A stretch of 64,000 nt of DNA from positions 105,182-169,181 of the forward strand of contig JBFPLN010000005.1 in NCBI GenBank assembly GCA_051971635.1, given 5' to 3'. Source of the DNA: Candidatus Atelocyanobacterium thalassae (GTDB lineage: Bacteria; Cyanobacteriota; Cyanobacteriia; Cyanobacteriales; Microcystaceae). The translations under genes and the position numbers were made by a program. The notes under the pieces were generated by a model. It was not told the origin of the DNA. It worked only from the letters and a program-made list of their open reading frames with translations, and searched no databases. Shown here piece after piece: positions 7,950 to 43,868 of this stretch. Positions within the stretch are counted from its first letter, which is position 1, and every line of letters begins with the position of its first letter.

Positions 7950-8870
7950 TTAAACTCTATTGAAATATACTTTTTGTAACAAACTCTGTGTAATGATTAT
8001 TAAGTTTAATCTTGCTTGTAGTTTTTTCATACTTTCCAATTCTTTAGAAGAAAAAATACGACAAGAACGCTCAAACTCTAACAGACAATAGCTAAGTATT
8101 AAGATTTGTTTGGTATTATCTTCTTTGCATTTATGCATTTCAGAGTCTAACATCATGAAAATCTGAGAAATTAACTGCCTTTCTGTATGAGAATTTAATA
8201 GTAATTCTTCAAATTCCATATCGTACGAAAAAATATACCTTTCTTTATTTAAAGCTTTTTCATTATTTAGAGATTTAACGTTTAGCTTTGCTGTTATACC
8301 TTGTTCTTTCGCTAAATGTATCAGATGACAACAACGCAGATAAGCATATTGAACAATATACAAAGAATCATACGATTTACTATCATAAGTAGTGCAATGT
8401 GTTAATAACTGGGAAATGTCTTGATTTTGTAACCATAGAAACAAATACTTATCATCTAACGTAAATTCTAGCCAGCCTGGTTCAATTAGTTTAAGGATAA
8501 AACCTATACACGGTATATCCGAATAATGTTCTATCGTTATTTGTTCATTTTCCATTAACAAACAAGAACAAGTTTGTTTTATTAACTCAAAAATTTCCTC
8601 AGCTATTACTATTGCCGGATAAGATGATCTACTAGCTAACTCAAAAGCTACAGTACAACGATAGGTAATTAAATAGGGATAGGATATGAGAGTATAATTT
8701 AAACGATTAACAGGAATAAATTTTTCTAAGTAAATAAAATCAACATCTTTTATTTTCTTGAGCTTTACTAGTTGAGAGTATATGAAAAATTTAAGTTGCT
8801 GCTGAATTGAGATCTTGGTCTGTTTGATAAATATAGGATAAATTGCTCTTATAACTTTATCATCCTTCAT
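7950..8870 (-). CDS. Stand-alone DALR anticodon-binding domain protein (ArgRS-like, no catalytic core)
   Basis: AFELASR..AEEI..PGWLEF resembles the ArgRS N-domain; VQYAYLRCCHL and FERSCRIF...QARLNLI resemble the DALR domain; no HIGH/KMSKS. Confidence 0.7.
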   Translation of the reverse strand: MKDDKVIRAIYPIFIKQTKISIQQQLKFFIYSQLVKLKKIKDVDFIYLEKFIPVNRLNYTLISYPYLITYRCTVAFELASRSSYPAIVIAEEIFELIKQTCSCLLMENEQITIEHYSDIPCIGFILKLIEPGWLEFTLDDKYLFLWLQNQDISQLLTHCTTYDSKSYDSLYIVQYAYLRCCHLIHLAKEQGITAKLNVKSLNNEKALNKERYIFSYDMEFEELLLNSHTERQLISQIFMMLDSEMHKCKEDNTKQILILSYCLLEFERSCRIFSSKELESMKKLQARLNLIIITQSLLQKVYFNRV

Positions 8871-38362: not shown

Positions 38363-38948
38363 CTCTCCTTACAAACCACACAACTAGAACAAAATTAATA
38401 GATTACAGATTTATGGCCACTACATAAAAAGCTAATTTGTTGGTTATAAAGCAGACCAAGTCTAATAATAACTACATTTGATTTAAAGGTAAAGGTAAAG
38501 GTATTATATCTATCAAAAAGTGATGAAAAGACAATACCACAACTTTTAAATATTAAAACATCTGTTTTTAATAATTTCTATATTTACTAAGATATTTTAG
38601 AAGTAGACTAGTAAGAAACAGTATCTTAACAAAGATTGTTAAAGAAGAAATTGTAAGAAGTTGTTTATTTTCAAAAGTGATGGCCTAAATATGTGTAAAG
38701 ATTAGTCTTGAAAAGTTAATAAAGAATAAACTCATAGCTGCCGGAATTAGCTGTATTTCTAGTTTTTTTAGTAACAATCTTAATAATAATTTTTACTAAA
38801 AAACTTGAGTTATTTCTTGTATATACAAACCCCCTGTTTAATTCAACTCTAATCTATCAAATAATAAACGTGTTACGTGTTCGAAAAAATTATTAGTTGT
38901 ATTTTTTGAAAATTTTATATGTCATGATTTTTCCTTAATTGAAAATCC

Positions 38949-38981
38949 ATAATACCTTATTAATATTTAAGAAGGTATTAT
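38949..38981 (-). terminator. Inverted repeat at the 3' end of the peroxiredoxin pseudogene
   Basis: ataatacctt / aaggtattat, perfect 10-bp arms. Confidence 0.4.
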
Positions 38982-39548
38982 AGATTTTACAAAATCTAGG
39001 ATTATTCCTTTATCTCTTTCTTGTCAATCTACAGGATATACTTCTCCTGAGAATGTCATATCACTTTAAGAATACGTAATGTTTCGTTAATACTAAGTCC
39101 AAACGATAAATTATTAATCGTGATGTACTAAATGATTTCTTGCTTATTGATTATAAATAATCCCCTTGAAGAAGTACCAGATTTTGAACCTAAAACATTG
39201 AAAGCACTACTAATATCTTTTTTTCAGATCAGATAGCAAGGAATAATTAATATCAGCTACGCCACCATACATTAGGAGGTGTTTGGATCCAAGCTAAGTT
39301 AGAAAATTCTTTATCAACAGAGACTCCTAAAATTTGAGTATTGATTTGAGAGAATTCCCCATGCCAATCACTAAAAGTAATTACCTCTGTAGGACGAACA
39401 AAAGTAAAATTTAAAGGATAAAAAACAATACAGCATATTTCCCGAGGTAGTTAGAAAGTTTCTTTATCTGAAATTCCTGATCCACTATTCCCATAGCTAT
39501 AAAATTAGGAGCAACTTGTCCAACTTACTAACTCTCTTGTCTATTCAT
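38967..39548 (-). pseudogene. 2-Cys peroxiredoxin (AhpC/TSA) pseudogene
   Basis: Manual translation across frameshifts (/): [121 protein letters not shown]../ITINNLSFGLSINETLRILKVI*../EVYPVD*QERDK. Confidence 0.93.
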
Positions 39549-39766
39549 AATTTGATTTCCAATAATAAAATCATTTGAAATTTGTCTTTTTTATAGGCTT
39601 TTTGTAAGTAGTATTCATAGTAATTGTGATAATTGTATATGTTGGTTTTATATTAATTTACTTATTATCAAAATAAAGATTTTCAGAACAAAGTACATGT
39701 AATATTTATAGAAATTATGAATATATTCAGGTACTATCTTAAAAAAAATAGCAAAAGTACTTTAAA

Positions 39767-40522: not shown

Positions 40523-40628
40523 CTTGTGTGTAAAACCTTATTATCTTAACTATTTATATTTTAAATTTTAGCTGTATAAATTAAGATAATATAGAAATTT
40601 TATAGATTTTTTGTTAAATTGTCTACTA

Positions 40629-42974
40629 ATGGATACTTCTCAAACTCAGTGGCAATCTTTACCATTTATAGATTTACCTTTGTCACTTACTAATTACCTT
40701 AATTCTTTTAATATTTCTCCTCAAGAAAATTGCATATCTCAGCTTTTATGGCATAGGAAAATTCGGAATTTAGATCAGCTTAAAAATTTTTTAGATCTTG
40801 ATTCTTATAAATCTCTAAGTATTTTGGAAGCTTGGAATGAAGTAATACCTTCTACATATAGGTTAAAAGAAGCAATTGATAACAAAGAGAAAATCATGAT
40901 TTGTGGTGGAGAGGGTATTAGTAATATTATTGGTACAAGTTTATTATGGGAAGGACTAGGGAACTTTTTAATTCCTTATGTTCAACTTAATTATTATATC
41001 CCTAGTTATAATACTAAATGCCATGGCTTCAATACTGTAGCAATAAGACAATTAGCTATGGAAGGAGTAAATTTAATTATTACTTGTGGCGTAAAGGATT
41101 TTAACCTGCAAGATCTTAATTATGCAAAATCTCTAGGCATTGATATTATTGCAATAGGTAGAAATCTTAGCATCAATAATATAGACAGTCCTGTTTATAT
41201 TATCGATCCTTGTTCTTTACCTCAAAATCATCCTTTTTTTGATTTTTCAGAAACTCCATTAGCATATAAGTTAATTGAAGCTATTCATACACAAGTATTC
41301 AATACGCCAAATAATAATTTAGATAATTTGCTAGATTTAGTAGCCATTAACTCAATCTCTACTTTATTAAGATTAAATACAGAGTTGAGATATCTAACGA
41401 AGAAAGGAATTCAAAATTTACAGAAACAATTGAGAAATCCTAGTAGACCTGGAATAGCTTATCTATTATATTTATGTAAATTATCTGGAAACCGTCCAAC
41501 TGATACTTGCTTTGGCATTGGTTCTAGAATTAATTCTATTTGTTGTATTAATAAAAGTCCTAGTTTTATTGTAGAGTTACTAACTAATAAGAATAAAGAT
41601 TATTCTGAGAAACTTGCTCTAGAAGCTGAGTTGTCGAATATCCGATGTAACAATCTACAACAATATATTATTCGGAATATTAGACAAACTTTGAAAGGTA
41701 TCGACCTATCCATAACTCAGGTCATTGTTTTAGAGGATCCTGAATGGGAAAGTGAGATATTGAAGTTGGTTGTTCAAAAAGTTTCACGCGAATACAATAA
41801 ACCAACAGTTTTATTGACAACTGCAGAGTGCAAAGAAAATAAGCAGCAAAATTTGAATTTTTCTAGAGGATATGCATTCTCTTCGAATATTATTGATGCT
41901 TACAAGTTAATATCTTCTCAACAAAATCTACTATACTCATTCTACGGAGAACAATATTCAGATTTAATTGATCTAAGTTTAAATACTGAAAATGTTCCTT
42001 TGTTTCGAGAAAGAATTAATCAATATTTACGACAAGAGCTTGCCGCAATTGATAGCCCAAAGTCTATTATTAAAGCTGATCTAACAGCTACAGTTTCTCA
42101 GCTTGGACAATCTTTGTTCAGAGAATTAAAAATTTTAGAACCTTATGGTATAGGCAATTTAGTACCTAAAATACTGGTCAAAAATTGTTGCTTTAAAATT
42201 TCAAAAAATCAAAATGGTAATCAGTTCCAAAATAATGCCTTGAAGTATATAAAAACTGAAGTCATCCTTTACGACTCTTCTTCTGAAAAAGGATTTCCTG
42301 GAGTTTGGTGGGGACATCATAGGGGAGAACTACAAATAGAAGAAAATAAACAATATGACGCTATCGTAGAACTAGGCTATAGTAAATTGCAACCTGGAAA
42401 TCATGAAGTACGTTTAATTGAAATTAAAGAAGCCTCACATTATCTTCATCCTTCTATAGTAGGAAAAATAGCAGTAAATTTATTGGATTATAGAAATAGT
42501 AATAAAATTTTTCCTAACAATATAAAAAATGAATCAGTTAGACTTTGTCCGGTTGATTGGCAGGAGTTATTGGAAATATATGGTAAAAGTTGTGAAAAAC
42601 AGAAAAATTTAGCTCTACTATATTCGTATAGTATTAACCTAAGTTCTACAGGTACAATTCAAAAAGCTATTGACATTGCTAATTTCTTATCTTTTAGTGA
42701 TAAAACAATTACGAAAAAAAAATTGCAGAAAACTTTATCTTTAAGCAAATTTAGTTTGATGCTAGTATTAAATTTTCTAGAAAACTTTGGGTTCTTGATT
42801 AACAAAAATAATGAAAAGTTATCTTTTACTCTTACAAAGAATACAAATAATGAGTATAAAATACTCTTACAAAAACTTATGGAGGTAATTGAAGAAGAGA
42901 ATTTTAAAAAAAAATATTTTACTCAAATCTCTATAGAAATATTAGAGAATTTTCTAGTTCATGGTAGTAATTAG
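40629..42974 (+). CDS. recJ: RecJ-family (DHH) ssDNA exonuclease homolog with degenerate active site
   Basis: Overall cyanobacterial RecJ layout (SLLWEGLGNF, YYIP, HGFN, LLDLVAI, RPTD..FGIGSRIN, LEPYGIGN, GVWWGH), but the catalytic motifs are replaced; ATG 40629 (ORF open from 40611). Confidence 0.8.
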   Translation: MDTSQTQWQSLPFIDLPLSLTNYLNSFNISPQENCISQLLWHRKIRNLDQLKNFLDLDSYKSLSILEAWNEVIPSTYRLKEAIDNKEKIMICGGEGISNIIGTSLLWEGLGNFLIPYVQLNYYIPSYNTKCHGFNTVAIRQLAMEGVNLIITCGVKDFNLQDLNYAKSLGIDIIAIGRNLSINNIDSPVYIIDPCSLPQNHPFFDFSETPLAYKLIEAIHTQVFNTPNNNLDNLLDLVAINSISTLLRLNTELRYLTKKGIQNLQKQLRNPSRPGIAYLLYLCKLSGNRPTDTCFGIGSRINSICCINKSPSFIVELLTNKNKDYSEKLALEAELSNIRCNNLQQYIIRNIRQTLKGIDLSITQVIVLEDPEWESEILKLVVQKVSREYNKPTVLLTTAECKENKQQNLNFSRGYAFSSNIIDAYKLISSQQNLLYSFYGEQYSDLIDLSLNTENVPLFRERINQYLRQELAAIDSPKSIIKADLTATVSQLGQSLFRELKILEPYGIGNLVPKILVKNCCFKISKNQNGNQFQNNALKYIKTEVILYDSSSEKGFPGVWWGHHRGELQIEENKQYDAIVELGYSKLQPGNHEVRLIEIKEASHYLHPSIVGKIAVNLLDYRNSNKIFPNNIKNESVRLCPVDWQELLEIYGKSCEKQKNLALLYSYSINLSSTGTIQKAIDIANFLSFSDKTITKKKLQKTLSLSKFSLMLVLNFLENFGFLINKNNEKLSFTLTKNTNNEYKILLQKLMEVIEEENFKKKYFTQISIEILENFLVHGSN

Positions 42975-43061: not shown

Positions 43062-43868
43062 ATGACTACTGAAATAACAAAAAACATTGGAATTATAACT
43101 AGTAGCTTCTTTGCAATTTATTCCATAATAAATGTAAACCTTGCTTTTGGAAAAGATACTGTAACAAAATCATATGAAGATAATGAATTATCCTCTGTTC
43201 ACTGGTACAACAAGGGTACTTTGAGTATAGAGAACAAAAATTATTATGAAGCAATCCTTTTTTTTACAACATCAATTAAACTAAATAAAAATGATCCAGA
43301 TTTTTATTACAATCGAGGTTATTCTTTTTTAGCTTTGGAACAATTTCATGAGGCAATTAATGACTACACTGAAGCTATTCAACTCAGATCTAACTTTTCT
43401 TATGCCTATGGAAATCGGTGTTATGCTTACTATCAGATAAAAAATTATGAAAAAGCTATTGAAAATTGCTCAATAGCCATTAATCTAGAACCTGATTATG
43501 CAGATTTTTATATTTACCGTGGAAATGCTAAAGATAACTTAAAAATGCATGAAGATGCAGCTATGGATTATAGCAAAGCAATCTATTTAAAAAATAATAA
43601 CTTTAAAACTTATTACAATCGAGCTCTAGCTTATAATCGCTTAGGGAAGTCACTTAAAGCAGTTCTGGATTACACAAAATCTATTGACCTCAACTCTAAC
43701 TACGCTAATGCTTACCATAATAGAGGTGTAACACAATATAAGTTAGGAGAAACAGATAAAGCGATTAAAGATTTAAAAAAGGCGGCTTTGCTGTTTCGAC
43801 TTCAAGGTCAACTTGATAAAAGTCAACACACCTTAAACACTTTAAGAGTTCTCCAAGACAAAAAGTAA
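43062..43868 (+). CDS. Tetratricopeptide repeat protein with N-terminal signal/TM segment
   Basis: Repeated YYNRG..A..DY.KAI.L units; ends AIKDLKKAALLF. Confidence 0.9.
   Translation: MTTEITKNIGIITSSFFAIYSIINVNLAFGKDTVTKSYEDNELSSVHWYNKGTLSIENKNYYEAILFFTTSIKLNKNDPDFYYNRGYSFLALEQFHEAINDYTEAIQLRSNFSYAYGNRCYAYYQIKNYEKAIENCSIAINLEPDYADFYIYRGNAKDNLKMHEDAAMDYSKAIYLKNNNFKTYYNRALAYNRLGKSLKAVLDYTKSIDLNSNYANAYHNRGVTQYKLGETDKAIKDLKKAALLFRLQGQLDKSQHTLNTLRVLQDKK

Follow-up and report, generated by a model that had tools for sequence, protein, structure and literature searches.

This report concerns a RecJ-type gene in a stretch of DNA of 64,000 nucleotides from Candidatus Atelocyanobacterium thalassae (contig JBFPLN010000005.1, positions 105,182 to 169,181 of the forward strand; hereafter the window, to which all positions refer), a member of the nitrogen-fixing marine endosymbionts known as UCYN-A. 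All of the residues with which RecJ nucleases bind metal and cut DNA are replaced in its product, and the frame has stayed open in three species-level lineages, so that we consider it probable that the gene encodes a pseudo-nuclease that descends from RecJ and is retained in a non-catalytic role, which is most likely the binding of a partner in DNA metabolism. As judged from the sequence, the case for a pseudo-enzyme is solid, and the protein would lack enzyme activity; we infer the partner-binding role and the link to DNA metabolism.

The roles of the individual residues were taken from the RecJ of Deinococcus radiodurans (DrRecJ; PMC4846377) and mapped by phmmer alignments of two queries, the dead protein and one Crocosphaera orthologue, to the chain 5f54_A. 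As described in the available text of that study, DrRecJ binds its metals through D79, D81, D83, D135, H159, and D223, and its activity is almost abolished when a single one of these ligands is changed to alanine, while D158 and H160 form a catalytic pair (the general base), H397 is the general acid, and R393 is an exit residue. The same text assigns R109, R280, S371, and R373 to the 5′-phosphate pocket, Y80, Y114, V224, and F269 to stacking, and R280, R313, R314, and K353 to the helical gateway (PMC4846377).

The family alignment comprises the best 120 of 475 representatives with E ≤ 1e-20 among 7999 scored candidates, that is, three dead proteins and 117 others, and it is to this set that all counts out of 117 refer. 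All nine metal-binding or catalytic residues and all four residues of the 5′-phosphate pocket are replaced in the three dead proteins, and the same 13 residues are invariant in the 117 others. This bears out the original prediction, made from the letters of the window, of an open reading frame (ORF) of RecJ type and ~780 codons in which the metal-binding and catalytic motifs are all replaced (13 of 13 key residues are lost); the motif strings that it quoted lie within 1–3 nt of the places that it gave, and the free-living relatives are not degenerate in these motifs but keep them (117/117).

In the protein of the window itself, D94 reads G, D98 reads S, and R417 reads F. R340 is likewise invariant in the 117 others and is C in the dead proteins. 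Among the stacking positions, H132 (a His across the whole lineage) and L246 survive in each of the three dead proteins and F295 in two of them, F95 has become E, and the R300-I-N tripeptide is also kept in the dead proteins; the set of contacts to single-stranded DNA (ssDNA), composed of the stacking residues and the helical gateway, is not retained as a whole, with the gateway residues R306, R340, and K341 replaced.

The loss is restricted to this genus (three genomes, and none of the 117 other representatives). The intact proteins include those of Crocosphaera, Cyanothece, and the diatom endosymbionts of Rhopalodia and Epithemia, and the intactness of the gene in the latter means that genome reduction alone does not explain the loss.

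In the Pfam and NCBIfam profile searches, no family model other than recJ matched the dead protein. On TIGR00644 (recJ), for which the cut-off is 396.9 bits, the whole protein reaches 255.6 bits, and therefore falls outside the RecJ exonuclease equivalog by score; its sisters score 255.1 and 259.5 bits, versus 500.3 and 502.7 bits for the live orthologues P0011 and P0038. Pfam DHH is matched at 18.3 bits, below the cut-off of 28.1, and RecJ_OB at 25.7 bits against a cut-off of 27 (28–29 bits in the sisters), and there is no match to Pfam DHHA1 at E ≤ 0.1.

The genome of the window (G000) has 1.47 Mb in six contigs, ~31% G+C, and a completeness of 99.74%, and orthologues that are 73% identical, with open frames of 793–794 codons, are found in both of its sister genomes of the same genus (G001 and G002, of 1.4 and 1.5 Mb). 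The cluster members of both sister orthologues carry the source name Candidatus Atelocyanobacterium thalassa (UCYN-A) and are annotated as ‘DHH family phosphoesterase’, ‘RecJ’, or ‘hypothetical protein’. There are two recJ-like genes in total in the window genome, and the second, intact recJ, which the original prediction had proposed to look for, is a canonical copy of 650 aa on contig C3 of G000 (507.6 bits on TIGR00644), with all of its motifs intact and DHH, DHHA1, and OB all detected.

In 28 larger genomes searched (same family and order), a full-length match of the long-paralogue type stands beside the canonical copy in 26, at 35–44% identity, two of these 26 matches containing one in-frame stop; G009 has only the canonical type, and G018 (81% complete) has no match. 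The dead protein is 35–47% identical over its full length to the long paralogues, versus 25–28% to the canonical copies, and its C-terminal extension, which is absent from the ~650-aa canonical copy, aligns with nine free-living long paralogues. As a separate observation, G009 (2.9 Mb, same family) carries at C101:44190-45938 a canonical recJ match with two in-frame stops (one TAG, one TAA) that ends early, and to judge from its sequence this genome may be losing both of its recJ genes.

The second cyanobacterial recJ copy has been named recJcy, of the type sll1354, in the available text of PMC5101192. The dead gene would belong to this recJcy lineage, to which it may be assigned by elimination because there are two recJ copies per genome and NF008290, the E. 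coli-type model, gives the dead gene the lower score of the two. FastTree trees of eight genomes place one and the same free-living genome, the Crocosphaera-like G004, as the sister of the reduced clade, with a support of 0.965 in the long-paralogue tree and 0.983 in the canonical recJ tree, and since this free-living sister is shared by both gene trees, the descent of the dead recJ is vertical. On the stem of the reduced clade, the branch length is 0.905 substitutions per site versus 0.391 for the canonical recJ, a ratio of 2.3 versus 1.4–1.9 on the free-living branches, so that the acceleration is moderate; it persists in the crown.

The sequences further show that the dead recJ is not decaying, but is held by purifying selection in three species-level lineages. 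Orthologue triplets were assembled for 43 genes, namely the canonical recJ and 42 of the 49 ORFs in the window that reach 100 aa; an ORF was dropped, as happened to the TPR gene that follows the dead recJ, if the two sisters did not both give a reciprocal best hit with a coverage of 70%. In the three sister pairs, the ratio of non-synonymous to synonymous substitutions (dN/dS) of the dead recJ is 0.180, 0.161, and 0.175 by NG86 (bootstrap 95% intervals within 0.126–0.224) and 0.163–0.190 by YN00, the medians of the 43 genes being 0.106, 0.101, and 0.097 and the values of the canonical recJ 0.105, 0.093, and 0.097. By domain, the ratio spans 0.08–0.34, with 0.145–0.193 in the former DHH domain, 0.096–0.140 in the former DHHA1 domain, and the lowest values (0.08–0.10) in the linker.

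The three dead genes differ in length by in-frame blocks only, of 3, 1, and 3 codons, and in the sister comparison the identity at the first, second, and third codon positions is 0.80–0.82, 0.86–0.87, and 0.68–0.69. The comparison between sister strains that the original prediction had proposed thus yields a dN/dS of 0.16–0.18 with in-frame indels only, and not a value near 1 with frameshifts. When the frame of 781 codons was left to neutral simulation with 5%, 12%, and 24% of its sites substituted, the mean number of stops was 8, 18, and 32, respectively, and none of the 2000 runs at each level was free of stops.

The spacer between murC and fabG (38363-39766, 1404 bp), which contains a peroxiredoxin relic, served as a local yardstick of neutral change. 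This relic does exist, and dead DNA does decay nearby, as the original prediction had claimed: the spacer is 75.8% identical between G000 and G002 (where it has 1482 bp), with 16 gap events, 11 of which are not multiples of three, and only 272 bp of it are present in G001. The relic itself consists of AhpC-TSA matches at 39277-39438 and 39417-39524 on the minus strand, in two frames and covering the profile positions 1–80 of 124, and is 85% identical between G000 and G002.

Among the population variants listed (two clusters), 24 of 28 are of full length and have all six dead motifs, and the others are three end fragments on short contigs and one call of 308 aa (P0148).

Two side observations touch on these comparisons. 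The synonymous divergence (dS) of the dead recJ between G000 and G002 is 0.879 versus a median of 0.564 (rank 2 of 43), and it is equal in the three pairs (0.87–0.88), although most genes place G000 nearer G002; the gene tree of the dead recJ weakly joins G000 with G001 (support 0.742), and the cause may lie in a weaker constraint on codons, in locally raised mutation, or in an old recombination. The fastest-evolving ORF of the 43 is another one, at 7953-8870 on the minus strand, with 59–65% protein identity to its sisters and a dN/dS of 0.25–0.27.

The erosion of the protein is uneven, as may be seen from the 228 columns in which the 117 intact proteins reach a conservation of 95% or more, and from a retention ratio, defined as the identity to distant relatives taken relative to Crocosphaera (both are given by domain in the table below). 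The diatom endosymbionts show no such drop in the retention ratio. Where conserved columns are replaced in all three dead proteins, the new residue is identical in 50 of 71, compared with 318 of 553 variable columns, which indicates that the replacements arose on the common stem and were retained thereafter.

The fold and the domain order DHH, linker, DHHA1, and OB are predicted to be retained in an AlphaFold2 model built on an alignment of 110 rows, with a mean predicted local distance difference test (pLDDT) score of 82.4 and a predicted template modelling (pTM) score of 0.70; beyond residue 630, the pLDDT by block is mostly 78–93. The top Foldseek match is a full-length bacterial RecJ (8y30_A, E 6.9e-42), with archaeal RecJ-Cdc45 and Cdc45 chains ranking behind it. 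The VIA-align comparison with 8y30_A, the RecJ of S. aureus, gives Z 31.6 over 679 aligned residues (rmsd, the root-mean-square deviation, 8.7; model range 5–780), so that the C-terminal part would be common to the long firmicute-type RecJ and not an invention of this lineage; 5f55_A and 2zxo give Z 29.2 and 29.1, and only the core aligns with archaeal RecJ-Cdc45 (Z ~20) and eukaryotic Cdc45 (Z 13–16).

Under the favoured reading, the ancestor would be a vertically inherited RecJcy of the sll1354 type in Candidatus Atelocyanobacterium, in which the two-metal centre, the general base and acid, the 5′-phosphate pocket, and most of the basic residues of the gateway would have been replaced on the stem of the genus, and the whole protein of 781 residues would have been held by purifying selection afterwards in the three species-level lineages. 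Two-metal phosphoester cleavage of the DHH kind is no longer open to such a protein, whose OB fold and N- and C-terminal parts would contact a partner in DNA metabolism, with the former catalytic core serving as a folded framework only, and the nuclease activity would be supplied by the intact canonical RecJ elsewhere in the genome.

The original prediction had proposed a non-catalytic role, either in ssDNA binding or as a scaffold, and it is the scaffold, or partner-binding, part of this proposal that fits better. The loss of the pocket and of three basic gateway residues makes the threading of DNA through the core unlikely, and with the 5′-phosphate pocket and most of the gateway basic residues gone, ssDNA binding through the nuclease core is unlikely as well. 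Partner binding is favoured because the OB, N-terminal, and C-terminal parts are nearest to the ancestral state, and because the C-terminal domain of DrRecJ contacts proteins. One of these is reportedly HerA, going by the title of a paper (PMC4663267). Contact with the tail of SSB, the protein that binds single-stranded DNA, is also mediated by this domain, according to the available text of PMC4846377.

The window genome has two SSB genes, at G000:C4:73999-74292 and G000:C3:400621-400908 (L043 and L044), whose products of 121 and 146 aa both end in an acidic, aromatic-terminated tail. When the full-length protein was modelled in complex with the last 50 residues of the 146-aa SSB, without controls, the score was 0.00 (mark 0.32), which speaks neither for nor against such a contact.

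As for the ancestral function, the loss of sll1354 raises natural transformation in Synechocystis (PMC10667661, in the passage citing Kufryk et al. 2002), and the loss of recJcy favours transformation and the maintenance of RSF1010 in S. elongatus (available text of PMC10653904). ComEC was not found in the window genome at its completeness of 99.74%, and DprA and RecQ are below the cut-off; the restraint of incoming DNA, the ancestral task of RecJcy, may have become pointless here.

The free-living RecJcy is the nearest known system; it matches the dead protein in length (~780 aa) and in the order of domains, C-terminal extension included, but it keeps every catalytic residue (117/117) and behaves as a nuclease in genetics, whereas the whole active site of the dead protein is replaced. 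The canonical bacterial RecJ proteins, which are 5′-3′ ssDNA exonucleases (5f54-5f56, T. thermophilus 2zxo, and S. aureus 8y30) share the same predicted fold over the whole length at 18–19% identity, and differ in the metal ligands, base, acid, and 5′-phosphate pocket, which the dead protein is without.

Transcription may be followed in UCYN-A1, where UCYN_08160 appears to be the orthologue of the dead recJ, because the only other recJ-like gene there is UCYN_05290, a canonical copy of 650 aa. UCYN_08160 is paired with cce_2425 and CwatDRAFT_5509 in an orthologue table, and has expression values in the UCYN-A1 array data sheet, of 6.0–6.3 on a log scale in the light and 4.6 in the middle of the night, which place it on the periodic list with a false discovery rate of 0.126 (available tables of PMC6315102 and its supplement). 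That study, in which natural populations were followed by array over the diel cycle, detected transcripts of 365 of the 1194 UCYN-A1 genes, and in it the genes of replication and division likewise peak by day (PMC6315102). In a second array study, the gene is listed in the ‘Detected_genes’ sheet (PMC10153697), and the presumed UCYN-A1 orthologue is transcribed, as far as the available sheets of the two studies go.

Several points weigh against a protein kept for partner binding. No partner of the dead RecJ has been identified, nor was protein-level evidence found, the term RecJ being absent from the available PDF supplement of PMC13104995. The dN/dS of the dead recJ is 4th, 6th, and 5th highest of the 43 genes and ~1.7 times that of the canonical recJ, its dN ranks second in all three pairs, and its dS, near 0.88, approaches saturation. 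The truncated call P0148, which belongs to the G001-type cluster and lies on a metagenome contig of 16.7 kb, matches residues 1–303 and then diverges for five residues, and may be either a frameshifted allele or an assembly artefact. Of the 110 alignment rows behind the structural model, 107 are intact homologues, and the model is no proof that the dead form folds.

To these may be added that the diel rhythm of UCYN_08160 was not repeated in the second data set, where it is marked ‘Diel: no’ (available sheets of PMC10153697). The RNA of the window genome itself amounts to four contigs of 151–245 nt, identical to the window over 40747-41328 and found in two oligo-dT runs of one study (word shares 0.17 and 0.09), which could stem from DNA and are too little to claim transcription in this genome. 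Finally, four new acidic residues at or beside the old motifs (E95, D157, E441, and D448) are identical in all three lineages.

The first alternative to be weighed is that UCYN-A, or the nitroplast, independently made a Cdc45-like protein, that is, a structural subunit built permanently into the machinery for replication or recombination restart; we regard this as rather unlikely. It is raised by the loss of the nuclease and end-binding sites, by the lack of a Bac_DnaA match in the window genome, and by the high level of the transcript by day in one data set, a pattern shared with the replication and division genes. On this reading, the protein might also serve as a docking point for proteins that are imported from the host. 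To our knowledge, bacteria have no MCM/GINS.

Cdc45 and the archaeal RecJ homologues with an inactivated DHH domain (arCOG00428, arCOG00432, and RecJdbd) are described as structural parts of replication complexes in the available text of PMC3307487, and the portion of PMC4846377 available describes CDC45 as lacking counterparts of D79, D135, and H159 as well as of R109, S371, and R373 in the pocket. The metal and pocket sites are lost in the dead RecJ as they are in Cdc45, and the fold is predicted to be retained under selection. The likeness is a functional analogy and not one of descent: the dead RecJ is an independent event in a bacterial paralogue, outside the archaeo-eukaryotic clade, with no helicase partner known, and has lost the gateway basic residues that CDC45 is said to keep. 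A link to the loss of dnaA was considered as well and is weakened, given that the spheroid bodies of diatoms, which also have no dnaA according to the available text of PMC6315102, have a RecJcy that keeps all of its motifs.

The four acidic residues might form another metal or substrate site in a remodelled enzyme that is still catalytic, as might be expected from the low dN/dS of the former catalytic domains (0.10–0.19, the lowest apart from the linker) and from the new residue shared in 50 of the 71 replaced conserved columns, although this is improbable. All six metal ligands, both His of the DHH motif, and the acid His are lost, together with the four 5′-phosphate residues, where an alanine in place of one ligand nearly abolishes the activity of DrRecJ in the text available (PMC4846377). 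Motif I still varies among the three proteins (G/R/K at 94, S/N at 98), which is unexpected for a new active site, and recJ is the only family model that matches.

The dead protein might instead be a decoy or antagonist, which binds 5′ ssDNA ends or SSB and shields the ends from the active RecJ, and would act as a regulator of resection and not as a scaffold. The preservation of the OB fold (26 of 34 conserved columns), the retention of H132 and L246 in all three proteins and of F295 in two of three, the presence of two SSBs with acidic C-terminal tails in the genome, and the fact that DNA binding by RecJ needs no metal (available text of PMC4846377) would all suit such a role. We give it little probability, as the replacement of the four pocket residues and of the gateway residues R306, R340, and K341 makes both the recognition of ends and the threading of DNA through the core unlikely.

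Least probable of all is a dying gene, a remnant without function that stops and deletions have so far missed, or that is open only because truncated products would be harmful, since a stem branch 2.3 times that of the canonical recJ, one possibly truncated allele (P0148), a dN/dS and dN among the highest of the 43 genes, and an ancestral DNA-restraining role that is perhaps obsolete (ComEC not found; DprA and RecQ under the cut-off) are set against a dN/dS of 0.16–0.18 in all three independent pairs at a dS of ~0.88, no frameshifts versus 16 gap events in 1.4 kb of adjoining spacer, no open frame in 2000 neutral simulations, a genome that deletes dead DNA (the spacer of 272 bp in G001), and the 24 full-length members of the 28 listed from populations.

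In the ORF listing of the window, the gene lies in one uninterrupted frame (40611..42974, plus strand), which gives 787 aa from a TTG, and the ATG at 40629, which gives 781 aa, is the start that aligns with those of the orthologues. A TPR gene (43062-43868, plus strand, 268 aa) with a hydrophobic, signal-like segment at the N-terminus of its protein begins 87 bp past the stop of the dead recJ, in the same orientation, just as the original prediction had it. This gene is also found directly downstream on the same strand in G002 and beside the intact gene in the free-living G005 (locus L007), but it is missing from G001, which keeps the dead recJ; the TPR protein is therefore rejected as an obligate partner, and is probably an incidental neighbour.

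Table. Domains, motif remnants, and replaced residues of the dead RecJcy orthologue, with coordinates in the window and, by domain, the conserved columns kept in all three dead proteins and the retention ratio
Feature	Residues	Window position	Strand	Character, or replacement	Conserved columns kept	Retention ratio
Whole gene		40629..42974	+	Catalytically dead RecJcy orthologue (by sequence), 781 codons and stop		
N-terminal region	1-60	40629..40808	+	Packs with the C-terminal part in solved RecJ	7/7	0.63
Former DHH domain	61-290	40809..41498	+	Remnants of motifs I-IV	47/101	0.55
Linker / helical gateway region	291-345	41499..41663	+	F295, R300-I-N kept	15/27	0.62
Former DHHA1 domain	346-475	41664..42053	+	Remnants of motifs VI and VII	22/45	0.60
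OB-fold domain	476-600	42054..42428	+	Comparatively well preserved; RecJ_OB match	26/34	0.78
C-terminal domain	601-781	42429..42971	+	Winged-helix-type helix/strand pattern, comparatively well preserved	12/14	0.84
Motif I remnant ICGGEGISNI	91-100	40899-40928	+	D94 to G/R/K, D96 to G, D98 to S/N (three dead proteins)		
Motif II remnant ITCGVKD	151-157	41079-41099	+	D154 to G (three dead proteins)		
Motif III (DHH) remnant IAIGRNL	174-180	41148-41168	+	D177 to G, H178 to R, H179 to N (three dead proteins)		
Motif IV remnant AINSISTLL	239-247	41343-41369	+	D245 to T (three dead proteins)		
Motif VI remnant RGYAFS	413-418	41865-41882	+			
Motif VII remnant FYGEQYSDLID	438-448	41940-41972	+	H441 (acid His) to E (three dead proteins)		
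5′-phosphate pocket				R127 to Y, R306 (motif V) to C, S415 to Y, R417 to F/Y (three dead proteins)		
Gateway basic residues, linker				R306 to C, R340 to C, K341 to N (dead protein)		
Former DHHA1 domain, single residue				R437 to S (dead protein)		

Searches of the literature on cyanobacterial recJ and on UCYN-A or the nitroplast turned up no account of a dead UCYN-A RecJ, and neither did looking up terms in the available text of PMC12234771, PMC12903740, PMC13104995, and PMC8679911. In public annotation and in surveys of gene content, the gene figures as a RecJ or DHH phosphoesterase, and pathway tables count it under homologous recombination, which would overstate the repair capacity of these genomes.

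The replisomes of archaea and eukaryotes already offer a case in which RecJ was inactivated and became a structural protein (Cdc45), and the gene described here would be a second instance, which is bacterial, recent, and datable. If the favoured reading of a RecJ-derived pseudo-nuclease is true, an early stage of such a conversion would be visible in a lineage that is becoming an organelle, with intact orthologues in close free-living relatives available for comparison. The retention of a 2.3-kb gene in a genome of 1.47 Mb that deletes its dead DNA would then point to a function that is missing from the models of UCYN-A biology.

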